The translations under genes and the position numbers were made by a program. The notes under the pieces were generated by a model. The model ran no database searches. It was not told the origin of the DNA and saw only the letters and a list, made by a program, of their open reading frames with translations. DNA of 64,000 nucleotides from Escherichia phage JLBYU40, in the sequence record NC_105514.1. The stretch is one strand, 5' to 3'. Positions 1-12,246 of this stretch are shown here, one piece after another. The number at the start of each line of letters is the position of its first letter. Positions within the stretch are counted from its first letter, which is position 1.

Positions 1-15
1 TTTCAACTTTAATTA

Positions 16-750
16 TTACGCAACTTTTAATTTCTCAATATATTGTTGCGGGCTGCAACTATATTCTGCGCGTTCTTCTTCGGTCATACCTTCCCAACAT
101 AATTGCAGGCGGTCGGCTAGGAACTGATAATCATTATCATCCTCAAGAGATTCATCAATAAAGGTTTCACCTATCAATGTCACGCCGATTGATAGAATAT
201 CGTTAACGGCTTGCGCATCCAGCGTTTTAAATCCGTATGATGCCGCCGCTGATAGCACGCCTTTATGATCATCAATCATTGTAAAATCAGCGTTCGGATA
301 TAATTGTTTAAATAATTCAAAATAATAAGATTTATATACTGCGTCCTTGCTGTGGTATATTTCGCTAACCTTATCAGCTTCAAAATATTTGTGTAGTGTA
401 TCGCGGGAAAATACACGGATATTACTATCCCCACGCCCTCGCAATCCTTGTTTACGCAAATAATAATAATCCGACTTGCTCATCAGTCGAGCGGTACAGA
501 TAATGTTTAACGTGTTAACATCATTCATGCACTGGCGCATATATGTAACAAGGGGCAATAGTGTATCTTGCATTATTAAATCATGTTTGCAGGCTTCATT
601 TTTATACTTATTTAAATCTAAATTGCCCTCGCTATCAAAGCAAGGCGCTACACGATGAAACGAATTAATGATAGTGCCGTCCAGATCCCAAATCATGACG
701 CGGGAAATATGCGGGAAATTACGGGTAATATTCGTTTTAACTTGATTCAT
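16..750 (-). CDS. dmp: HAD-superfamily phosphatase, likely 5'-deoxyribonucleotidase (T5 Dmp-like)
   Basis: 244 aa; N-terminal IWDLDGTI (HAD DxDGT motif); first gene of a dmp-A1-A2-like array. Confidence 0.6.
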   Translation of the reverse strand: MNQVKTNITRNFPHISRVMIWDLDGTIINSFHRVAPCFDSEGNLDLNKYKNEACKHDLIMQDTLLPLVTYMRQCMNDVNTLNIICTARLMSKSDYYYLRKQGLRGRGDSNIRVFSRDTLHKYFEADKVSEIYHSKDAVYKSYYFELFKQLYPNADFTMIDDHKGVLSAAASYGFKTLDAQAVNDILSIGVTLIGETFIDESLEDDNDYQFLADRLQLCWEGMTEEERAEYSCSPQQYIEKLKVA

Positions 751-830
751 TTTGTTACGTTCTCCATTTAAGGGATTAGATTAATTCAGCATTACCCGCT
801 ATTTATAAGCGGGTAATAATAAATTAACTA

Positions 831-1223
831 TTAAAGACCATAAGCCAACGCATCAGCGATAAAACTAACATCTTCACCCGATACACTGGAACGAATCCCC
901 GCACAAGTATATACTTTTGCGCTGATCAATTGATCATCAAGACAAGCGGGGCAAGGCGCGACAACTGCAAAGGCTAGGCCGGATTTTACGGCGTCGATGA
1001 TAATCGTTTCTTGTTTCACCGTGTCAACATAAACGCCTGCGGCCTTAATGTAACTACTTGCGCGGCCTTGCGTATAGGCAAAGGTAGTAACCTGCAAAGC
1101 GTCATTAAAGTCTAGTAGTTCATCAATAACGTGCCCTGCCTCGACGTGGTAACGTTCGCCGTTAGAATAAACCAGAACAATTGAGGACTGAGCGCGATCG
1201 AATGGAATATTTTGCTTTTTCAT
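831..1223 (-). CDS. hypothetical pre-early protein
   Basis: 130 aa ORF, co-oriented and tightly packed with neighbours. Confidence 0.45.
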   Translation of the reverse strand: MKKQNIPFDRAQSSIVLVYSNGERYHVEAGHVIDELLDFNDALQVTTFAYTQGRASSYIKAAGVYVDTVKQETIIIDAVKSGLAFAVVAPCPACLDDQLISAKVYTCAGIRSSVSGEDVSFIADALAYGL

Positions 1224-1261
1224 ATTTATATAACTCCAATTAGTTTAATAAGGGGTTTAAT

Positions 1262-1519
1262 TTATTTGATAATAATCTGCATCTGGTACGGCGTTAATTC
1301 ACCGTTTACGGGTAAATTATTATCGCTTAGCCACTCATAAAAAGCACCATCATCATCAAAAGGGACAATATCGTTATCACGGGAATCGACGGAAATAATA
1401 CCATCCGTATTAGTTTTGGCGGCTAGGATAGGCCCGAAGCTGTAAACTTTATCAGATTCCATTTCATCCGGTGAAATGAATACTTTTTCGTCCAATGTTT
1501 TGGGAAGAGTAACTTTCAT
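1262..1519 (-). CDS. hypothetical pre-early protein
   Basis: 85 aa ORF, acidic. Confidence 0.4.
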   Translation of the reverse strand: MKVTLPKTLDEKVFISPDEMESDKVYSFGPILAAKTNTDGIISVDSRDNDIVPFDDDGAFYEWLSDNNLPVNGELTPYQMQIIIK

Positions 1520-1536
1520 TTAATTTAGCTCCTATA

Positions 1537-1562
1537 ATAGCGGCTATATTTCAAGCCGCTAG
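1537..1562 (-). terminator. intergenic hairpin after the A1-like gene
   Basis: 8-bp stem TAGCGGCT/AGCCGCTA with 8-nt loop. Confidence 0.35.
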
Positions 1563-1575
1563 GGGAATAATTTAA

Positions 1576-3330
1576 TTACGCGAAAAATTTACCGTTTTTA
1601 AAGTCAATCAAAGTACGCTGACCGTTTGCATAGGTAATTAAATGCGTTTGCGTCCAGCTTGACGCGCCAACGTTGTAACCCATATCCAGACTACCAGCTA
1701 CGCCAGCGGTATAAACGCCGCCATAAATGCTTGCCGTATGAGTATGCCCTGTGTTTAATTTGCCCAATTTCTTAAATTGTTTCGGGTTGCCACGGCTGCC
1801 GTTAATGCCATTGTGACCGTGTACGCCGCATTCAATGCCTGCAATTTTAAATGATTGGTCAGTTGTTAGAAAAATGGCGTTAAACTCGCAACCTGCAACC
1901 TTACGCAGCGCATAATCTAGCACGTTGAAAGTATCGTCTTTTTCTGCAATAGCTCCATAAATCGCGGCATTTAGGCGGTGATATAGTTCCGCGTTTGCGG
2001 GGTCGTCTTTAATGTTAGCATTACGATCATCCAGCCAACGGGATAGCGCCAAATCGTGATTCGATTCAACAATGATCGTTTGACTAAAATCACGTTCCAT
2101 CGATTCCAGCACGCGCCCCGTATCGATAAGATCATCCAGAACTTTATCACGTCCGGCGGCATACTGTTTTGCTAGGAATACACCCGAAGCGCGGTTGTGA
2201 TGGTTGCGTGATGTAAAGTCGTGAACGTCATGGATAAACTGATATTTTGGTTTAAGAATATCAAGCAAGCTATTTTCGCCAGCCCATGACGCGGCGGCGC
2301 AATCGTCATCTAATTTTTCAGCGTGAATATCACCATATTGCAAGCCTAAAACATGCCCCGATGTTTCATAACATCCGGCGGGAGTGGCGCAAACATTCAG
2401 ATCATAAAACACGCCGCTTTCGTCCATTGTTTCAAGCTGGCGAACAAAAAATTCCCCGTCGTCGTCGAACTCAACAATCAGCGCCCCGAAATTATGCAGT
2501 GCTTCCGCTTTCTGCCCTGCTTTCTGCTGAATGTAATTTTTGAGCGTTGCCGTTCCGGTTGAATACATGCGGCGCACAATTTCACCTTTTAAAGCTGGCA
2601 CGCTTTCGGCGGTGATTTTAGCGTGACCAATTGCCAGACCTTCAAGATTAAGCGCGGTTGCAGTTTCAGCGAATCCAGATAGCGGATAGTCTGCGGTTGG
2701 CAAAACATTAATTTCAGCCATGAAAGCAAAACGGCGATTATTCAAAAACACGTTTTTGCTGCAAATATATTTATCGAACGCGGAATCATATTTTATTCCA
2801 TCCGCGCCCTCGCCATTTTGGAATCCGTTTTTATTATAAATATACTTAGAAACAAGCAAATCAGCGCCACAATATTTAGCATATTGTTCGAGCGAGGACA
2901 AAAAGTTTTTATGCGGGAACGTATTATTCTGAATCGATGTAATAATAAAGCGTTTACCCTGCTTTACTTCCCATTGTTCAACCGTGCTAGAAACAATCCC
3001 CGCCGCTTCTGGGCGCTCATCGTTTTTAATGGCTTTTGCTGCTTTCGCCGCTTTCGGTTTAGCTGGTTTATTTGCTTCCAACCAATCACAAATGGCGGTC
3101 GAGTGTTTTGTTGTATCGTAGACCGCTTTTGATATATCGTCGCAGACCTCCAGTTTAGTGGCGCGCAGACGTTTACCATAGAAATTAAAGTCAGCGGCCA
3201 TTTTCAGGATAGCGGTTTGTTTTTCTGCGGAAATAATCATAGTATAAAACTCCATTAAAGGGACTAGGTTAATAACGGCAATATTGCCAAATATAACGCC
3301 TATTATTTGAGGCGTTATAATTTGCAACAT
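1576..3330 (-). CDS. A1: pre-early A1-like protein with C-terminal metallophosphoesterase motifs
   Basis: 584 aa; C-terminal GVHGHNGINGS...GHTHT calcineurin-like motifs; size and position match T5 A1. Confidence 0.55.
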   Translation of the reverse strand: MLQIITPQIIGVIFGNIAVINLVPLMEFYTMIISAEKQTAILKMAADFNFYGKRLRATKLEVCDDISKAVYDTTKHSTAICDWLEANKPAKPKAAKAAKAIKNDERPEAAGIVSSTVEQWEVKQGKRFIITSIQNNTFPHKNFLSSLEQYAKYCGADLLVSKYIYNKNGFQNGEGADGIKYDSAFDKYICSKNVFLNNRRFAFMAEINVLPTADYPLSGFAETATALNLEGLAIGHAKITAESVPALKGEIVRRMYSTGTATLKNYIQQKAGQKAEALHNFGALIVEFDDDGEFFVRQLETMDESGVFYDLNVCATPAGCYETSGHVLGLQYGDIHAEKLDDDCAAASWAGENSLLDILKPKYQFIHDVHDFTSRNHHNRASGVFLAKQYAAGRDKVLDDLIDTGRVLESMERDFSQTIIVESNHDLALSRWLDDRNANIKDDPANAELYHRLNAAIYGAIAEKDDTFNVLDYALRKVAGCEFNAIFLTTDQSFKIAGIECGVHGHNGINGSRGNPKQFKKLGKLNTGHTHTASIYGGVYTAGVAGSLDMGYNVGASSWTQTHLITYANGQRTLIDFKNGKFFA

Positions 3331-3528
3331 TTAACTAATCGGCATTAGACTAGAACTAACACCACAAACAACGGCGGCAATAAAGCAAAGTAAGCCTAAA
3401 CGCTTTGCCAATTTAGATTTACGTTTAAAATAATATGAATCTAAATCATTTTGAAAATAAGCGAATAGTAATGAGGCCGCCATAATAAATAAACCTAGAA
3501 TTAACGATTCAGTAGGGTAAAAGATCAT
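3331..3528 (-). CDS. small membrane protein
   Basis: 65 aa, two hydrophobic segments; start abuts A1 stop. Confidence 0.4.
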   Translation of the reverse strand: MIFYPTESLILGLFIMAASLLFAYFQNDLDSYYFKRKSKLAKRLGLLCFIAAVVCGVSSSLMPIS

Positions 3529-3582
3529 TTTAATAACTCCTGATTTAAGGGAAGAAAATAACTATCGCTAAACAGTTATATT

Positions 3583-3609
3583 CTTGCCCCCTCACTAGAA
3601 GGGGGCAAG
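3583..3609 (-). terminator. strong hairpin after the A2-like gene
   Basis: 9-bp G/C stem CTTGCCCCC/GGGGGCAAG. Confidence 0.45.
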
Positions 3610-3618
3610 GTATAACTA

Positions 3619-4026
3619 TTATTCGCCTGCGGCTTGTTTCACTTCATCGGCAACGCCTAACAGTTGCGCTACGGCGTCCAGCGTTTCAAGTTTTGCACTT
3701 TCCAGACTTGCCAGATCGTCGGCGTCTTTAATAATGCCGGAATCGATAGCATGTTTAGCAATAACGCGCACGTAATGCGCTTTGCGGATTGAGCTACCGC
3801 CGCCAACTTTACGCGGCTTATCGCTTTTCTGATACGCTTTTGCGCTGGTCAATTTTGACCGAACGGATACGGGAGAAGCCGCGCCAACTGCTTTTGCAAT
3901 TTCTTTTAAACCGTCGCTATTTGCGAAATCTAAACCGTTTTCATTGATTAACTGCTGGTACATAGAAACAGCTTTCTGAGTGTTTTCTTCATTCCATGAG
4001 AATTTTGCGGTTTTAACGTTAGTCAT
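3619..4026 (-). CDS. A2: pre-early A2-like protein
   Basis: 135 aa; synteny downstream of A1-like gene; strong hairpin terminator follows at 3583-3609. Confidence 0.45.
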   Translation of the reverse strand: MTNVKTAKFSWNEENTQKAVSMYQQLINENGLDFANSDGLKEIAKAVGAASPVSVRSKLTSAKAYQKSDKPRKVGGGSSIRKAHYVRVIAKHAIDSGIIKDADDLASLESAKLETLDAVAQLLGVADEVKQAAGE

Positions 4027-4124
4027 GGTAAAAACTCCTATTAGTTTAATTTAAGGGATAAGATTAACATAATGTTAATCATTATATTCCCCATATTTCA
4101 GAGGAATATAAAGTTAACACTAAA

Positions 4125-4376
4125 TTATAAAACAGCTTCCCATTTTTCGTTGCGTTGAACAACCTTTACAACGTCGCCGGATTTAACGCGAACGCTAAAA
4201 ACGGTTTTGCCGTTGTTACTACGTTCATTTTCAGCGTATACCGCGTCGATTGTATCAAACGGCATAAGCGCCGCACCTTTAATACGTTCGGCTTTTCCGG
4301 TTAATTCATCCGTTTTAGTAACGAAAGGAATAAAAACGGATTGACCAATTTTTGGCGCGGTAATAACGTTTTTCAT
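4125..4376 (-). CDS. hypothetical protein
   Basis: 83 aa ORF. Confidence 0.4.
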   Translation of the reverse strand: MKNVITAPKIGQSVFIPFVTKTDELTGKAERIKGAALMPFDTIDAVYAENERSNNGKTVFSVRVKSGDVVKVVQRNEKWEAVL

Positions 4377-4412
4377 AGTATAAACTCCGAGTTATTTGGT
4401 GGATTGTTCCGC

Positions 4413-4439
4413 ATTACCTGCTGGAAAGTAGCAGGTAAT
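4413..4439. terminator. intergenic hairpin
   Basis: 10-bp stem ATTACCTGCT/AGCAGGTAAT with 7-nt loop. Confidence 0.4.
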
Positions 4440-4574
4440 AAGTAACAATCCGCTCGCCAGTATAATCGATTTAAAGAACTCCACGTAGGCCGCTATATCC
4501 CAGTTAGGGGGCGGGATGCATTATGGTAAGCACCGACCGTCAAATTTTATCAAGTTATCGCTCTTATCGAACTG

Positions 4575-4598
4575 GGTACATCTTAAAACCTATCGGCT
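4575..4598. repeat. left arm of 24-bp inverted repeat
   Basis: GGGTACATCTTAAAACCTATCGGC; 23/24 match to the reverse complement of 4841-4864. Confidence 0.7.
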
Positions 4599-4604
4599 AG
4601 GTTG

Positions 4605-4808
4605 TCAAACTATTTTTTGCAGTTTTTTATGATTTTCTTTCAGGTCAATCATAATATTGCGCCAGATCATTTCCAGACCTTGCTGGCGGCCTTTCTTGTA
4701 CTGCTTAAATCGCCATTTTACCGATCTTTGCGCTACTGTCAACAATTTTTTAGTTTCGCTATCCAGTGCCTTGCTAGGTTTACCAGTGATCAATAAAGTT
4801 TGTTTCAT
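4605..4808 (-). CDS. small basic protein flanked by 24-bp inverted repeats
   Basis: 67 aa, K/R-rich; bracketed by near-perfect inverted repeats at 4575-4598 and 4841-4864. Confidence 0.35.
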   Translation of the reverse strand: MKQTLLITGKPSKALDSETKKLLTVAQRSVKWRFKQYKKGRQQGLEMIWRNIMIDLKENHKKLQKIV

Positions 4809-4840
4809 ATCGTCGATTCCTTATATTATATAAGTTTACC

Positions 4841-4864
4841 GCCGATAGGCTTTAAGATGTACCC
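4841..4864. repeat. right arm of 24-bp inverted repeat
   Basis: GCCGATAGGCTTTAAGATGTACCC. Confidence 0.7.
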
Positions 4865-5581
4865 AATTTTTAAAGAGCGTGGCGGTAAACTTCCCGCCGT
4901 GTAGTTCGTCATTGCCGCCCTACGAGGTAAATACTAGCAAATACCAAAAATGGCGCAACCTTATTTTTGTAAAGAAACGTAAAGACACGATTCACCGGAT
5001 GGCGTGCGGCGACCTGGGCGCGGCGCATTAAAATTAAAGGAAACGGGCGCGCGAATACCACAAAACATAGCAGATAGGCAAGTAATTTTTTCATTTATAT
5101 TTGCTTTGCCCTACTTGACAAAATCTAAAAAGCTCAGGGTAGCGATAAACGGGCTATCCCTTTATGATGGGATGCCTGAAAAATTTACCGCGTCAGAAAG
5201 CGTTTTAGGCGGCTTATTTTCGATTTAACAAATATTTAACAAAAGCAAAATTGAAAAATAGTTGAAAAAGGTCTTGACTTTTAAAAATCAAGACTAAACG
5301 AGTTATTTTATAAAATTAATTAATTGACTTTTGTTTGTTGTTGTGTATTAGAAAGATAGCAGACTAATAATTACTAGAATGATAATCATGCTGGTGGATT
5401 GTAACAGCCTGAACCATTAGCAGACTATTAATCACGGAAAATCTCATTAGCCAACTAACTATTTCATGATATATAATATACTTATAAATTAATGAGAAAT
5501 AATAAGTATAATAAATAATAACTACAGTAAATAATAACTATAAGAAATTATCGGCCTAAGTGAGAACCACTATCATTTAAG

Positions 5582-5689
5582 TTATCCACAAGTTTATTAA
5601 CAGCACAAAATGATTTGACACGATAGGCGGCGATATAAAGACTTATCTACAGACTTATCCACAGGTTATCCTACTGTATAAATATACAG
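5582..5689. repeat. left arm of ~110-bp imperfect inverted repeat with DnaA boxes
   Basis: TTATCCACA at 5582-5590 and 5655-5663, TTATCTACA at 5643, palindrome CTGTATAAATATACAG at 5674-5689. Confidence 0.65.
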
Positions 5690-5956
5690 GGTAAATGGGT
5701 AGTATATTATAAGGATGTCGATTTTAAGCGGCCTAAAACGCTTTCTAACGAGCTAAATGCGGTGGGGTAATATTAAAGTAAAGCCTTCACCCGTCGCCCT
5801 GGTGGCTTCGCCGTGTTTTGCTCTTTATTACACCGCTGCGCGGTTATCATAAAAATATGCGCTAGGCAAGGAAAATAAAAAGGTAAAATAATCTTTGCCT
5901 ATGCTAGAAAATTACCTTTATCATTCACTCACCGATTAACGAGGGAGGCTGAACAA

Positions 5957-6967
5957 ATGAGGCTTTATAAACCTGATAATGCCACCGTTTTAAAAGGTGC
6001 ATTGCGCAACCTGCTGGACGGTAGCAAGTCAACCAGCATTAAACATTTTATTAACAAGGTTGAAACTATTCATCAAAACTTTTTTGATGAATATGACGCC
6101 TATGATATGGATAGTTTTCTACCCTTATATAAGCAAGGGGCAACGCTAGTTTTATATAATCGGGATTGCCATATCTTTACAGGCAGGGGAGCGGGACCGG
6201 ATACCGATTTTATTGTTGCGCAGGGCAATACTATTGTTGCGTATCATAGCAATTCAGGCCGTCAATCATTTAATATAAATGCTTTTGAGCTTATTGGGCT
6301 TGATCTTATAAACGGGCTTTCTAGCATTGAGGGATTTTTAGATGTTATCTGGAAGTATTTACCCGCTGGATGGTATAAGCCGGATAATGACGGATCTCAA
6401 TATACCGCTATAATGGCTTTTGATGGCGATGGTAATTTTTTGTTACCTTCGAAATTATACCCTTATGTATATAATGATCTAATAGAAGAGGCTGGTTTTT
6501 CTTTCTGGAAAGATGATGATCAGCCCATTGACAATATAGAAAACCATGCTGTAAATTCTAACACTCAAAGCGTTAACACTCAAACTACTGAAAACAAAGG
6601 AAAAAATACCATGACCAAGATCGCTAATATCGTTGCCGCTAATAAATCCGCCGTTGTAAATGCTGCAAAACTGGAAGCGGGTAAAATTGCACTGACTCAA
6701 ATTACGAAAGTAGCGGCTAAAAAAGCACCGTTCATGATTAAAGGTTATATTGATACACCTATCGGTCGAGTAGTGATTGCCAACCTGCTGAGCGTAGCGG
6801 TTGACCAGTATGCCCCGAACAACCAGAAAGCGAAAGCGGTAGCAGGTGCAGCTATGGAAGCGGCTATGTTAGAAATGGTACAAAGTTTCAATATTGCTGA
6901 AATGATTGATGAAATGGTAAAAGGTATTGATATTTCTACTTTTACTACTAACACTGAAAGCGAGTAA
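5957..6967 (+). CDS. hypothetical pre-early protein (336 aa)
   Basis: RBS GAGGGAGG upstream of ATG; first gene of plus-strand cassette between inverted-repeat arms. Confidence 0.55.
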   Translation: MRLYKPDNATVLKGALRNLLDGSKSTSIKHFINKVETIHQNFFDEYDAYDMDSFLPLYKQGATLVLYNRDCHIFTGRGAGPDTDFIVAQGNTIVAYHSNSGRQSFNINAFELIGLDLINGLSSIEGFLDVIWKYLPAGWYKPDNDGSQYTAIMAFDGDGNFLLPSKLYPYVYNDLIEEAGFSFWKDDDQPIDNIENHAVNSNTQSVNTQTTENKGKNTMTKIANIVAANKSAVVNAAKLEAGKIALTQITKVAAKKAPFMIKGYIDTPIGRVVIANLLSVAVDQYAPNNQKAKAVAGAAMEAAMLEMVQSFNIAEMIDEMVKGIDISTFTTNTESE

Positions 6968-7084
6968 TAAATAATCTAATGTAAAGTTTTGTAAAGGCCG
7001 CCTTTTATGGTGGCCTTTTTTGTTATAATGCCTTTACACCGTTTGAGGACGGTTGAAAATTTCCCAAAAAATTGGAGGCTTAAA

Positions 7085-7315
7085 ATGGTTGCATATTCTT
7101 CTTCTGACGCTCTTTTCACTGGAAAAGGCTGGGTATCAAATCGCTGGATCATTCAAGAAATGGTGCAAGAATACGGCATTGCTAAAACTTACACTACCAT
7201 TCAGGCGCTTTATGATAATGATCAAATCGATCAGCAAACGGCTGGCTTTTTGCTGGATACCCTGAAGGCGGAACATTGCACCAAAAAACAAGCCGCTAAA
7301 ATTATTTTAATGTAA
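7085..7315 (+). CDS. hypothetical protein
   Basis: in-frame ATG at 7085 preceded by RBS TGGAGG; the longer 7007 start lacks an RBS. Confidence 0.45.
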   Translation: MVAYSSSDALFTGKGWVSNRWIIQEMVQEYGIAKTYTTIQALYDNDQIDQQTAGFLLDTLKAEHCTKKQAAKIILM

Positions 7316-7513
7316 TTAATAACGGGGCGTTACTTTCGCCCCACTAACTAGGAGAATGAAAATGGTTATTTTTCGAGCTATTTTAGCGGGTATCTTGGGC
7401 GCTATTTTATCGTTGTTTGCAATAGCTTTCGGTGTTCACGCCGTTATTATCGGCGCGGGGATTGCCATTTTTTCTTATTTGCTGGGCTGCATGACTAGTA
7501 AAGGAGAATAAAA

Positions 7514-7726
7514 ATGATCCGCAACGTTTCTCTTGCTCGTTCGAAAGGCTTTAAGCTGGTGGACGTTAACACGTTCGAGCGTGAAGATTGTAAAATCGAA
7601 TATGTAGCGCGGAATAAAAACGCTTTTCGTGTTACCGAGAAAAAATTCGATAAGCGCGGCAACGTGATAGCTGAAACAGTTAAACATTTTGCCACCTTTT
7701 ACGCTGCGTTTCGTGGGGTACTATGA
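7514..7726 (+). CDS. hypothetical protein
   Basis: 70 aa; RBS AAGGAGA upstream. Confidence 0.45.
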   Translation: MIRNVSLARSKGFKLVDVNTFEREDCKIEYVARNKNAFRVTEKKFDKRGNVIAETVKHFATFYAAFRGVL

Positions 7727-7849
7727 AAAGCGTTATCATTATTATCCTTGCAATGGTTGGCGGTTTTACCGCCACCTTATTTAAAAATGATCCCCTTTTA
7801 CTGGGGATTTTTATGCTTTTATCTGGCTATCTGATTGGGAGGTTATAAA

Positions 7850-8194
7850 ATGGTAATTTATGAAGGCAATCGTTTTGTTGCTAATTGCCGTCCTGCATTG
7901 CTAGCAAATTACTTAAATCAGCTTTCACCAGCTTATAAGGGCGTCATTAATATTTACGAGGGCAAAGCGCATTATAAGATTAATGCGGTCGTTGCCCGTG
8001 AACTAGCGTTTCAATTTTTGACCTTTGCATCTTGTGACGTTCAGGTCATGGGTGAGGCGTTAATTGCAGAAAATGATGATGATTTTATTAACATTTTTCG
8101 CAAGGTATGCACCGAGCGCCTGATAATGAAAGGCGCATATATTCAATCCACTGCGGATAGTATTGAAACAGCGTTTCGAAAGGTGGCGCAATGA
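7850..8194 (+). CDS. hypothetical protein
   Basis: ATG at 7850 preceded by RBS GGGAGG; internal start of the 7835 ORF. Confidence 0.45.
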   Translation: MVIYEGNRFVANCRPALLANYLNQLSPAYKGVINIYEGKAHYKINAVVARELAFQFLTFASCDVQVMGEALIAENDDDFINIFRKVCTERLIMKGAYIQSTADSIETAFRKVAQ

Positions 8195-8367
8195 AAAAGT
8201 TTTTAATAGCTGGCATGTTTCCCTTGTTGCCTTATGTAATTTGCTGGGCTTTATATGCTCATGGTGCTAGTGTTCCCGGTGTGGTGTCATTTGGTGTATC
8301 GGCGGGCTTTCTAGCTGGACTATTGGCAAGCGTATATTTACGCAAATAATTAATAACGGGGGTTATT

Positions 8368-8562
8368 ATGAGCAATAAAATTATTGTAACCAAAACTACC
8401 ACAATGGTTGACGTTTTTTATGTGCCCGATACGCCGGAAAACCGGCAAGCGGTCGAGCGTGGCGAGTATGATAAAGTGATTTATGATCACGATGGTTATT
8501 ATCAGCATTTGGTCGATTCCTACGGGGAGGAGGAGAAGATCACGCATCAATTACCTGACTGA
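8368..8562 (+). CDS. hypothetical protein
   Basis: 64 aa; RBS-like GGGGG upstream; last gene of the cassette. Confidence 0.45.
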   Translation: MSNKIIVTKTTTMVDVFYVPDTPENRQAVERGEYDKVIYDHDGYYQHLVDSYGEEEKITHQLPD

Positions 8563-8705
8563 TAACAAGCGGGGAGCAGATCCCCGTTTTTCACGCCTCC
8601 AGATAAATACCCCTCTGTTTTAGTATCCCCACCAAAATTAAACGCGTTAGAATGCGATTCAGGACGGTTTAGCGGTATATTAGAATTATTCACTACATAG
8701 GAATA

Positions 8706-8813
8706 CTGTATAAATATACAGTAGGATAAGCTGTGGATAAGTCTGTTAATAATGCCTCAAAATGGCTAGGATTTTGTCAAGTCAAATCGTGCTGTTGATA
8801 AGTCTGTGGATAA
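8706..8813. repeat. right arm of ~110-bp imperfect inverted repeat with DnaA boxes
   Basis: same 16-bp palindrome at 8706-8721; TGTGGATAA at 8732-8740 and 8805-8813; shared AACAGCAC...GATTTGAC blocks. Confidence 0.65.
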
Positions 8814-8829
8814 CTTAAATAGCAGTGTT

Positions 8830-8876
8830 TCTCACTTCCATTTTTAAATGCGAGTCATTATCATTTGCATTTCACT
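8830..8876. repeat. 47-bp direct repeat, copy 1
   Basis: TCTCACTTCCATTTTTAAATGCGAGTCATTATCATTTGCATTTCACT. Confidence 0.7.
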
Positions 8877-8933
8877 ATCTAACCGATAATCATTCCACTT
8901 TTTAAATGAGAATCATTTCACTTCCTGAATAGT

Positions 8934-8980
8934 TCTCACTTCCATTTTTAAATGCGAATCATTATCATTTGCATTTCACT
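8934..8980. repeat. 47-bp direct repeat, copy 2
   Basis: identical to copy 1 except one base. Confidence 0.7.
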
Positions 8981-9046
8981 TTTTAAATGAGATTGATTCT
9001 CATTATCATTCGCATTCAAGCGGGCAGGGCAATTGCCCTGCGCTTT

Positions 9047-9647
9047 TGTGCAAATCCGACATTGCTCCACTGGTGTTACGTGTGGGCATGTATGTGCGAA
9101 TCCGACAATTTTTGGTAGTGTGCAAATCCGACCCGAAAAATTTTTATAGTGTGCAAATCCGACAATGAATTTTCCCAAAAACTCCAGCAATCCGATGCTG
9201 CGCATCAATCCTGTGGAATTAGCTAGAATATGTGCAAATCCGACATGGGTTTATTTGTGCGAATCCGACAAGATTTTTGTGACTTTGATTGGAGGGTGTG
9301 TGATTGTATGGGTTTGAGGAGAAGATGAGAGAGTGAGAGAAATTTGAGGGAACTGTGAGAGGGGCGCAGGATTGGTGCGGAGCACCTGATTTGCGGGGAT
9401 TTTGGGGAAGAGTTGAGAAGATTTGGGTTAATTTGAGATAGGTGCAGAAAAAGCGAAATTTTATTAGCTAAAGGGGGTAAAATAGCTTGACAAGTGAAAA
9501 TTTCTGTGGCTCAAAAAACACAAGCAATCATGGGCCTTCGGCCCGAAATAATGCTGCTATTTTCAGGAGAGTAAGAGTTCCTAAAAACTTAGGCGTTTGT
9601 GCAAATCCGACCATAAATTTCTAGAAATGCAGTGTGCAAATCCGACA
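9047..9647. repeat. iteron array: 8 co-oriented copies of TGTGCRAATCCGACM
   Basis: copies near 9047, 9093, 9118, 9150, 9230, 9256, 9598, 9633. Confidence 0.7.
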
Positions 9648-9690
9648 GTAATTTCTGGAAATGTGTTTTCAAAAAATGTTTCCTAGAAAT

Positions 9691-9763
9691 AACCGCCCTC
9701 CCTATAACCGCCCTGTATTAAACCGCCTAGTATATGTTCCTAGAAACTTAGGAGAACCGCCCT
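9691..9763. repeat. cluster of four AACCGCC(C/T) repeats with CTAGAAA palindromes
   Basis: AACCGCCCT at 9691, 9706, 9755 and AACCGCCTA at 9721. Confidence 0.6.
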
Positions 9764-10110
9764 AGAAAGAGCGGTATCTCGTGAGAACTCTGGAGTTTCT
9801 AGGAAAGTGTTATGCCATCCTAGCAGATGAGCGGCAACAGGTGTATCATCTTGAACACAGATATTGCCTTTAAATATTATAAGGTAAATTAAAAGTAAAG
9901 TAGCCCCCATTACATGTGTGCTTACTCGTGGGGCGCGTGATTAATTACGTAAGTCCTCGACTGTCATACCCCTGTTGCTCGGTCGCAAAGAGTTAACGAA
10001 GTCTCGTGTAATAATCATCGCCCCTAGAGTTCAAAACAAGAGTTGTTTTTAATCTATGTGATTATTATAACATGTGCCGCAATGAGTTGTCAAGAAGATT
10101 TTGTTAACGT

Positions 10111-10338
10111 TTATACATCCTCTTCGAGATTGGTATTGGGATCGTAAATTTTCTTAGCTCCTGTATTTAATAGGAATCGCTCTGCAAGTTGTGGGTGAAT
10201 ATCAAAGAACTCTGTGCATCCTTCGAATCCCTTTAAATTACAGCGGTATTTCTTAAAGTAGATATGTGCAGCGGCTTCTAGATCTCTAGGATTATGGGTT
10301 TCATAGATTCCCATACACGTATAAATCGTCAAAACCAC
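10111..10338 (-). CDS. hypothetical protein
   Basis: 75 aa ORF. Confidence 0.35.
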   Translation of the reverse strand: MVLTIYTCMGIYETHNPRDLEAAAHIYFKKYRCNLKGFEGCTEFFDIHPQLAERFLLNTGAKKIYDPNTNLEEDV

Positions 10339-10454
10339 GATAAACTATCTTATCTAAGTTTAGTGTTTGAATCCTATTATGTGGGTTCATACTAATACTG
10401 ATCTTTGTTCTCTTAGGGATCTTCGTCAGATCCCTATTTGCAAGAATATATACT

Positions 10455-11171
10455 TTATATAGTGACATTCTTTCTAGCCTTGAGTTTGATACCGAGAGAT
10501 GCGAAGTAGATATAAGTTGCTAAATAGGACATAGCAGATCCTGTCTCTTCGTAAGACAGAGTCCCTTTCACGTACCGCTCATATTCTGGCTCTAGATTAA
10601 TAATCGTAGTACTTGGCAATCCTAGCGAATTACATAATGATTTGAATGTTTCTTTATCTCTATGAATCGCATAGTGAATGGCTTTCTCTGTAGGAGTTAG
10701 TTCTAGATCTTTGGTAATGGCTACGTGCAAACTCGCTATAGTCATGCCAATTCCACGATACGTTTCTTCCTTATTAAGGGAAGGTTTCTGTTTCTCTAGC
10801 TCAGGAAGATGTGCAAATTCTCCTTTCTTTCTAGGAATCTTATCATCACTAAGTAATGCTGTTAAGAAATCTGTTTCTTCATAGGCTGGGAGCACTTCAT
10901 CAATCAATACTAGAATAGAACTAGCATTGATACCTTTCGCACTAGGATCTAAAGATTTTAACGCTTTATTAGTTTCAACGTAGGAGCCTGCTAATACTAC
11001 CTTTGAGCTATTCCTATCATATTTAATTTTATTAGCTTCCCAACGTGCAGGACGATAATCAGATAGGAACATTACAGCATACTTCTGTTCATCAGTTAGC
11101 TCAGAGAAACATTTCTGGTTTGATTCTTTTGCTAATGCAATAAGATGCTTTAGTTTTTCTGCTTTATTCAT
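10455..11171 (-). CDS. hypothetical early protein
   Basis: 238 aa ORF. Confidence 0.5.
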   Translation of the reverse strand: MNKAEKLKHLIALAKESNQKCFSELTDEQKYAVMFLSDYRPARWEANKIKYDRNSSKVVLAGSYVETNKALKSLDPSAKGINASSILVLIDEVLPAYEETDFLTALLSDDKIPRKKGEFAHLPELEKQKPSLNKEETYRGIGMTIASLHVAITKDLELTPTEKAIHYAIHRDKETFKSLCNSLGLPSTTIINLEPEYERYVKGTLSYEETGSAMSYLATYIYFASLGIKLKARKNVTI

Positions 11172-11173
11172 TG

Positions 11174-11563
11174 TTAAACCTCTTGAGCTTTATCTTCTGT
11201 ATAGAAATCTTCGGTAGCTTGATAGTGTAATGTAAAGAATTCAAATGACAAGCAATCTGATGCTGTATTTTGAATGTATCTTAATTCATTAATAAAGGAT
11301 TCTTTGAAGATCTTACGGTTAGGTTTTAGTTCTATCAGTTGGTTAATAAGCTCACCGATTAATTCTATTGCATCATCTATATACTCATCCATAAATACTG
11401 GGGATTCATAGATTATTTCCTCAACTCCATTAGTAACTAAAGCTACTACAATTACCTCTCCGGCAGTTTCTTCAGGGTAGAGATAACCTGCATCTATTTT
11501 ACGAACAGTAACACGAGTTTGACTAGTAATTTGACGATTTATAGCAATAATATAATGTAACAT
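11174..11563 (-). CDS. hypothetical early protein
   Basis: 129 aa; 2-nt gap to downstream gene. Confidence 0.5.
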   Translation of the reverse strand: MLHYIIAINRQITSQTRVTVRKIDAGYLYPEETAGEVIVVALVTNGVEEIIYESPVFMDEYIDDAIELIGELINQLIELKPNRKIFKESFINELRYIQNTASDCLSFEFFTLHYQATEDFYTEDKAQEV

Positions 11564-11625
11564 AAATTCTCCTAATATGCCTCCCCCTAATAGAAGGTCT
11601 GGAGAGGCGTAGACCTATAAATTAA

Positions 11626-12246
11626 TTAGTAATCTCTTTTATCCTCATTAATAGCAGCCCCTAACGCCTCCATAATAACATCTTCTAAACTTCCATGTTT
11701 ACTAGGATTATTAAAATGAATAGTGCAAATAGAACTCCTAGAAACTCCAGCATCCGCAGGTGCTACGCTTCGCATATCAGATTCAAAAGCTTCTTGGGTA
11801 TGTTGCAACTGTACAGAAGGGCCGTAATCTTCACCAAACTTATATGACTTCGTACTACTTACCACACCCCCACAAGGAACATTGTGCATATCCGACATTA
11901 ATCTTTTATCGGAGTTACTCAGCATTGAGATTGGCCCTGACTGCCACGGATCTCGAATAGTCACAGGAGTACTAGGACGGTTAACCTCAGTCTTCACAAG
12001 TTTATAACCAGCATCTATTAATGTGTTAATAAGGTTATCAGCTGGAATGCGAGCCGTGCCAAAAATCTTACGAGCATCTTCGAGCTTACCTTCAAGATCT
12101 TTACAGGCTCTAAGGTCAGTGTGTGCAAATGTTAGCTTCATAGATTTGAACTGTACAGTGGCAGTTAAGTCTTTAAAGCTATAATCCCATGTGTTCAGTT
12201 CATGATCTGGTACTACTTGAATAGCTTGTTGTGTATTAAAAGTCAT
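11626..12246 (-). CDS. hypothetical early protein
   Basis: 206 aa ORF. Confidence 0.5.
   Translation of the reverse strand: MTFNTQQAIQVVPDHELNTWDYSFKDLTATVQFKSMKLTFAHTDLRACKDLEGKLEDARKIFGTARIPADNLINTLIDAGYKLVKTEVNRPSTPVTIRDPWQSGPISMLSNSDKRLMSDMHNVPCGGVVSSTKSYKFGEDYGPSVQLQHTQEAFESDMRSVAPADAGVSRSSICTIHFNNPSKHGSLEDVIMEALGAAINEDKRDY

Follow-up and report, generated by a model that had tools for sequence, protein, structure and literature searches.

A predicted T5-type terminal repeat at the left of the Escherichia phage JLBYU40 sequence, and its probable right boundary

Work on the long direct terminal repeat (DTR) of phage T5 and on the two-step injection of its DNA goes back decades, and the sequences of hundreds of relatives are available. 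In the T5 record NC_005859, which corresponds to the Moscow sequence, the repeat is 10,219 bp long; another, much-cited figure, 10,139 bp, belongs to the Hangzhou sequence, from which 75 bp are missing (Davison, bioRxiv 10.1101/866236) and which therefore ends at about the same place. The repeat of phage BF23, determined from reads by PhageTerm, measures 9,743 bp (PMC10644984). Here, we describe the left part of a 64,000-nucleotide (nt) stretch of Escherichia phage JLBYU40 (NC_105514.1), the whole of which is hereafter called the window. With a probability that we put at roughly 85%, positions 1–9512 represent most of the DTR of a Tequintavirus (T5-like, Demerecviridae) genome, as judged by alignment to its relatives, with the first ~100 nt lying to the left of the window. 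The first ~9.5 kb are an ordinary, already known T5-type terminal-repeat and first-step-transfer (FST) region, in which nothing is biologically new.

A preliminary description of this DNA held that the window begins inside a T5-like FST region, and the alignments bear this out: position 1 corresponds to position 109 of T5, 108 of BF23 (OR083247), 95 of Escherichia phage vB_EcoD-Elw (Elw), and 76 of phage Kenya-K18 (K18). Some 75–108 nt of the left terminus, with the physical end and the terminator hairpin of dmp, are missing from the window. In T5, the left physical terminus reads TGTCCACTGCC….

Where does the repeat end on the right? We fetched both genome ends of five complete relatives, namely T5, Elw, Salmonella phage L6jm, K18, and Kenya-K36 (K36), and found the terminal repeats to be 100% identical at the two ends in all five. 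The repeat ends of T5, Elw, and L6jm map to window position 9512 (Table 1), and the BF23 end maps to the same base. Furthermore, window positions 9472–9512 match T5, Elw, L6jm, and BF23 through …TTCTGTGGCTC, and the fuller context reads …GAAAATTTCTGTGGCTC/AAAAAAC, where the slash marks the predicted cut (T5, Elw, and L6jm ends by pairwise alignment). The preliminary description had extended the repeat to ~10100. Because the ends of four relatives map to 9512, we predict that 9513–10100 is single-copy DNA, and that boundary was misplaced by ~600 bp.

As a separate observation, the two ends of T5 (1–9 and 10211–10219), when read inward, are TGTCCACTG on the left and GAGCCACAG on the right (reverse complement), with nGnCCACnG in common, and the same sites are found in Elw, L6jm, and BF23. 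It is possible that nGnCCACnG represents an inverted terminal cut-site motif.

Several points weigh against the reading of positions 1–9512 as most of a duplicated DTR. The deposited repeat ends are not unanimous, ranging from window position 9043 to ~10117 and thus differing by up to ~1 kb; the discordant boundaries are those of records AY692264, MF431730, and OQ291029/31/33/34 (Table 1). The ends of Elw and L6jm may have been set by homology to T5, in which case they would not be fully independent. The base just to the right of the cut is A in the window instead of T, and there is no other copy of positions 1–10100 within the 64-kb window. As for the Kenya phages, the records of K18 and K36 begin 33 nt inward of the T5-type left terminus, and the conserved T5-type cut-site sequences are still internal in both; for these reasons, we treat their boundaries as less precise.

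The discordant ends would allow two other boundaries. It is improbable that the repeat extends to about 10100–10117, up to the first early gene, which would place a second copy of the promoter/hairpin module described below at the right end of the genome. K36 has just such a repeat, exactly duplicated and ending just past the promoter, but K36 itself retains a conserved T5-type cut-site sequence internally, and the ends of its sister Kenya records scatter 20–100 nt around 9512, with left ends offset by 33 nt, which suggests imprecise end calling; T5, BF23 (by PhageTerm), Elw, and L6jm all end at the equivalent of 9512. An end to the left of 9512, either at the nick (9043) or at 9306–9411, is very improbable. 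It would agree with the annotations of AY692264, whose repeat stops at the nick, of chee24, and of K18, but a nick can be mistaken for an end, the later end is the one shared by the two remaining T5 records (Moscow and Hangzhou), and the read-based end of BF23 agrees with it as well.

Could the phage lack long terminal redundancy, or could its source record hold a single collapsed copy, so that no second copy would be found in the "complete genome"? Roughly four in five of the deposited relatives (~107–111 kb) carry one copy only (444 records yielding 529 places), and the stop of dmp lies 15 nt from the start of the window, as in records that were re-oriented to begin at dmp (FFH_1 and VSe12, for example). 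We nevertheless give this explanation the least credence, as single-copy records have been attributed to assembly software (Davison, bioRxiv 10.1101/866236) and every relative with resolved ends has the repeat. Where assemblies of relatives are collapsed, right-arm genes (the pb5 receptor-binding protein and terminase) adjoin dmp directly, a junction that is the signature of a terminally redundant genome. Since assemblers collapse the repeat, the absence of a second copy from a record is an unsafe refutation for which read depth is needed, and a record with one copy would not rule out terminal redundancy. If the repeat ends at 9512 as we prefer, a second, identical copy would be expected at the right end of the virion DNA and, by homology with the resolved relatives, would stop at …TTCTGTGGCTC. 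For annotation, the analysis fixes the pre-early/FST genes, the injection-stop field, the nick site, and the predicted repeat end (Table 1).

Table 1. Features of the left part of the JLBYU40 window and repeat ends of relatives projected onto it (aa, amino acids; ORF, open reading frame; iss, injection-stop signal)
Feature	Window position	Strand	Basis or remark
Predicted left terminal repeat (DTR)	1–9512		88–92% nt identity to DTRs of relatives
Predicted right end of repeat (terminase cut site)	9512/9513		…TTCTGTGGCTC/AAAAAAC
Predicted unique non-coding spacer, repeat to first early gene	9513–10110		outside DTR in T5, BF23, Elw, L6jm; inside only in K36 record
Repeat end, T5 (NC_005859)	9512		repeat 10,219 bp
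Repeat end, Elw	9512		repeat 9,935 bp
Repeat end, L6jm	9512		repeat 10,386 bp
Repeat end, K18	9411		repeat 10,020 bp; discordant
Repeat end, K36	~10117		repeat 8,641 bp; discordant
Repeat end, AY692264	9043		annotated 1–9749, stops at nick; discordant
Repeat end, chee24	9306		repeat 9,968 bp; discordant
Repeat end, Kenya-K37	9483		discordant
Repeat end, Kenya-K15	9493		discordant
dmp, 5'-deoxynucleotidase (pre-early)	16–750	-	244 aa; 99.2% aa identity to T5.001; phrog_415
T5.002 homologue	831–1223	-	90% aa identity
85-aa pre-early ORF in place of T5.003	1262–1519	-	phrog_8297; 85-aa genes at same position in Elw and other relatives
A1, putative metallophosphatase/nuclease	1576–3240	-	most likely 554 aa; 95% to T5 A1 from M31; phrog_1745; motifs; GGAG
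T5.005 homologue, small membrane protein	3331–3528	-	93.8% aa identity; phrog_4820
A2, DNA-binding protein required for second-step transfer	3619–4026	-	135 aa; 98.5% to T5 A2
T5.007 homologue (DUF7177)	4125–4376	-	89% aa identity
T5.008 = hdi (host division inhibitor) homologue (DUF7416)	4605–4808	-	88% aa identity
IRC-spacer-IRD inverted repeat (T5 Repeat Region 2)	5558–5689		paired DnaA boxes, TTATCCACA at 5582 and 5655
T5.011 homologue (DUF7566)	5957–6967	+	90.8% aa identity; Pfam
Terminator after T5.011 homologue	6993–7018	+	terminator scan
T5.012 homologue	7085–7315	+	
T5.013-like ORF	7356–7511	+	
T5.014 homologue	7514–7726	+	
41-aa ORF	7723–7848	+	
T5.015 homologue, Ung-dependent AP nickase	7850–8194	+	PF26847 on 114-aa orthologue
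52-aa ORF	8191–8349	+	
T5.017 homologue	8368–8562	+	
Terminator hairpin closing plus-strand block	8570–8591	+	= T5 9275–9296
Repeat Region 3 / iss field	8685–9765		T5 iss annotation and description
IRD'-spacer-IRC' with DnaA boxes	8706–8837		
DRE repeats, two	8829–8895, 8933–8999		
Homologue of T5 major single-strand interruption (nick)	9043/9044	-	beside palindrome 9024–9041
DRD repeats TGTGCRAATCCGAC, eight exact or near-exact	9047–9646		0.02 expected by chance
AACCGCC repeats, four	9690–9765		
Rod-like hairpin, 108 nt	10031–9924	-	
5' hairpin of promoter module	10049–10033	-	
Sigma-70 consensus promoter	10093→10064	-	TTGACA-18-TGTTATAAT, extended -10 TG; start near 10057

Window positions 1–12000 gave megablast matches to 550 phage records, mostly Salmonella and Escherichia Tequintaviruses, at 88–92% identity, and positions 12001–36000 were ~95% identical to the same group. 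The best phage records were 91–95% identical to the window, and no near-identical record was found among the phage records compared with it. An exact 41-mer spanning the repeat boundary gave 0 matches in IMG/VR, JGI metagenomes, and GTDB genomes; no entry on record is identical to the Dmp protein; and the exact A2 protein is present on 10 contigs, the DNA of which is only ~90–92% identical to the window. Judged by its sequence, JLBYU40 is a separate lineage within the very well-sampled genus Tequintavirus.

The repeat field that had been noticed after the A2-like region proved to consist of the DRD repeats and the two 67-nt DRE repeats listed in Table 1 together with inverted arms, and it also holds five copies of a 27-nt unit. 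The arms, 153 nt each (5558–5710 and 8685–8837), bracket the plus-strand gene block and align with the IRC-spacer-IRD and IRD'-spacer-IRC' elements of T5; they contain four consensus DnaA boxes (TTATCCACA), each paired with a variant box 3 bp away. The same iss anatomy has been described for 25 T5-like phages, and in T5 the field continues past the repeat end into unique DNA by ~270 bp (Davison, bioRxiv 10.1101/866236). The JLBYU40 field overruns the predicted end at 9512 by ~250 bp. The T5 nick at 9748/9749 maps to window position 9043/9044, in the conserved context GCCCTGCGC/TTTTGTGC.

We also observed that the DRD copies straddle 9512, with six to its left (9047–9269) and two to its right (at 9598 and 9633, spanning 9598–9646), followed by the four AACCGCC repeats. 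Such a layout would also suit a packaging-recognition site and not only an injection-stop signal.

When the ORF translations of the window were compared with the annotated proteins of T5 NC_005859, the genes dmp, A1, and A2 were found in T5 order, as the preliminary description had recognized, with 99.2%, 95%, and 98.5% aa identity to their T5 counterparts. Eleven more pre-early ORFs likewise keep to the T5 order, so that gene order and orientation are those of T5.001–.017, with T5.003, T5.009, hegG, and T5.016 absent. The counterparts of T5.012–.015 and.017 (7007–8562, plus strand) are 67–100% identical at the aa level. The suggestion that Dmp is an HAD phosphatase agrees with its near identity to T5 Dmp and with HAD motif I (DLDGT), although its match to Pfam HAD_2 is sub-threshold (E = 0.15; 12.6 bits vs. 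a cut-off of 23.8). Orthologues of Dmp in relatives are tagged PF26880 (Phage_T5_dNMPase), and a protein identical to the window's A2, whose length of 135 aa had been read correctly, is tagged PF26822 (Phage_T5_A2). In the Pfam copy used, which is without the newer T5-specific families, A1, A2, and Dmp had no significant match. Promoter-like sites detected by the promoter scan at 4608–4580 and 4742–4715 overlap hdi and match the positions of T5 P-D/E20 and P-H22, and another at 5895–5924 coincides with the T5 gene-011 promoter.

The A1-like protein had been given 584 aa, and an ORF of that length does exist (1576–3330, minus strand), but the real A1 most likely has 554 aa, as indicated by comparison with its orthologues. 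Residues 31–584 of the ORF align to all 556 aa of T5 A1, all relatives call a 554-aa gene, and a GGAG sits 11 nt upstream of M31; for these reasons, we place the start at M31. Strings that resemble the C-terminal metallophosphatase motifs claimed for this protein are there: five of them follow the canonical order of the calcineurin-like reference motifs (DxH, GDxxDR, GNH[DE], H, GHxH), namely GDIH303, HDVHDF337, SNHD393, GVHGH472, and GHTH498 in 554-aa numbering. A1 had no Pfam match even at E ≤ 10, and a PDB sequence search gave noise only. In the literature, A1 is described as a predicted or putative metallo-phosphatase, both necessary and sufficient for the degradation of host DNA (bioRxiv 10.64898/2026.04.02.716235). 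The 90 nt upstream of the A1 start (3241–3330, minus strand) are open and in frame, and the ATG of the extended ORF comes directly after the stop codon of the T5.005 homologue (TAAATG). The L6jm annotation has this stretch as a separate 31-aa ORF that overlaps the A1 start, and the stretch matches phrog_33010.

Two further observations concern the plus-strand block. The label "endonuclease nicking abasic sites generated by Ung" is attached to the 70-aa T5.014 (7514–7726) in RefSeq and PHROG 4227, whereas Pfam PF26847 (Phage_T5_AP_Endonuclease) and a 2026 preprint assign the nicking of Ung sites to the 114-aa gene 015 (7850–8194). The AP-endonuclease label in NC_005859 thus looks one gene off. 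In addition, the entire plus-strand block between the inverted-repeat arms is missing from Logan assemblies SRR26165478 and SRR26165477 (compared with window 5780–8622), and its absence from these two relatives is a natural counterpart of the viable engineered T5 hegG–017 deletion.

If the mechanism of T5 is transferred to JLBYU40 by orthology, the left repeat copy would enter the cell first, and transfer would pause at about 8% of the genome in the repeat-rich iss (window ~8700–9000), with a calculated shear point in DRE2 (~8933–8999). Host RNA polymerase would then transcribe the pre-early genes from strong sigma-70 promoters. Dmp would dephosphorylate deoxynucleoside monophosphates, A1, as a putative metallophosphatase-type nuclease, would destroy the host DNA, and A1 and A2 would together permit the second-step transfer. 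Beyond the repeat, positions 9513–10110 would form a single-copy, non-coding stretch made up of the tail of the repeat field and the promoter/hairpin module, followed by the leftward early genes.

This promoter/hairpin module is the one item in the region that could repay work, as a promoter and a hypervariable rod-like hairpin adjoin the site where terminase must cut. The promoter was the single perfect consensus found by the promoter scan; it is situated immediately downstream of the last early gene and is directed toward the end of the repeat. BF23, Elw, L6jm, and K18 have its -10 region unchanged, and the promoter was seen again in 13 loci that were fetched and in 18 contigs of IMG/VR. In T5, the positional analogue of the promoter is at 10879–10851, within a module at NC_005859 10650–10879. 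In every phage compared, a short 5' hairpin with compensatory changes is followed by one rod-like hairpin of 103–153 nt. The interior of the rod falls into at least eight unrelated sequence types: four share an outer helix with unrelated apical parts, and four, including that of T5, differ throughout. Each of the eight nevertheless folds into one rod, and the z-scores lie between -4.0 and -8.7 relative to dinucleotide shuffles (0 of 200 shuffles as stable). When the eight types were aligned, 78% of the cells paired, compared with 30–48% in slid controls, and seven pairs changed on both sides; the minus-sense fold was the more stable one in six of the eight types. By raw energy, the hairpin did not stand out in a genome-wide scan of stable 120-nt folds; the evidence for it is comparative rather than a matter of energetic rank. 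A clear terminator directly follows the rod in the BF23 group, whereas the window's type is without one.

Rfam gave no credible match at 9400–10200, the T5 and BF23 records carry no annotation at the module, and literature searches found no description of a T5 small RNA or RNase III site there. Our proposal, a tentative one held with low confidence, is that 9513–10110 is a conserved non-coding module of T5-like phages for which no description has been found. A transcript of the module would cross the repeats flanking the predicted terminase cut site. The module might give rise to a stable small RNA or an RNase III substrate under diversifying selection, or it might, by analogy with T7 concatemer junctions, take part in transcription-coupled processing or packaging at the repeat boundary. 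A 56-aa ORF within this stretch (9740–9910, minus strand) was considered as a conserved gene and rejected, as it had no family match and its ATG is not conserved in BF23.

Minus-strand ORFs begin at 10111, so the minus-strand early region had been correctly placed after the repeat field. A frameshift near 10300–10310 divides a T5orf172/MUG113-type (GIY-YIG-like) gene at 10111–10468 (minus strand) into ORFs of 55 aa and 75 aa, which reflects either a pseudogene or a sequencing error; for the gene as a whole, its intact counterpart is the 118-aa K18 gene K18_017. Across 9856–11623, T5.018 is replaced by 238-aa and 129-aa ORFs and the T5orf172 remnant, an arrangement common to K18. The DNA on the right side of the repeat forms a hot spot of mosaicism. 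Farther on, an Rfam scan of the window detected only 24 tRNA genes, all on the minus strand, at 28.4–40.5 kb.

Compared with T5 (NC_005859, 1–10219), the window has dmp–A1–A2 and the 11 other pre-early genes in the same order and orientation, promoters that agree by position, the same iss anatomy (IRC/IRD, DnaA boxes, DRE, and DRD), the same nick-site context, and the same right-end sequence of the repeat. It differs from T5 in the absence of T5.003,.009, and.016, in its extra 85-, 41-, and 52-aa ORFs, in the predicted length of the repeat (~9.6 kb vs. 10.2 kb), and in the DNA to the right of ~9855, which is unrelated until 11624. BF23 shares the gene order, the right end at 9512, and the promoter/hairpin module beyond the repeat, but it is 85–88% identical in nt sequence, has another type of hairpin interior, and ends the module in a clear terminator. 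The best collinear matches are Elw, which is 91% identical over window positions 1–6970, and L6jm; both have an identical repeat right-end sequence but, unlike the window, have a further gene of 164 aa behind the T5.011 homologue and a hairpin of another type. The linear genomes of T7-like phages likewise end in exact direct repeats, which are restored from concatemers during packaging. However, the T7 repeats are non-coding and only ~160–230 bp long, whereas the T5-type repeat, at ~10 kb, holds the whole pre-early gene set and the injection-stop signal.

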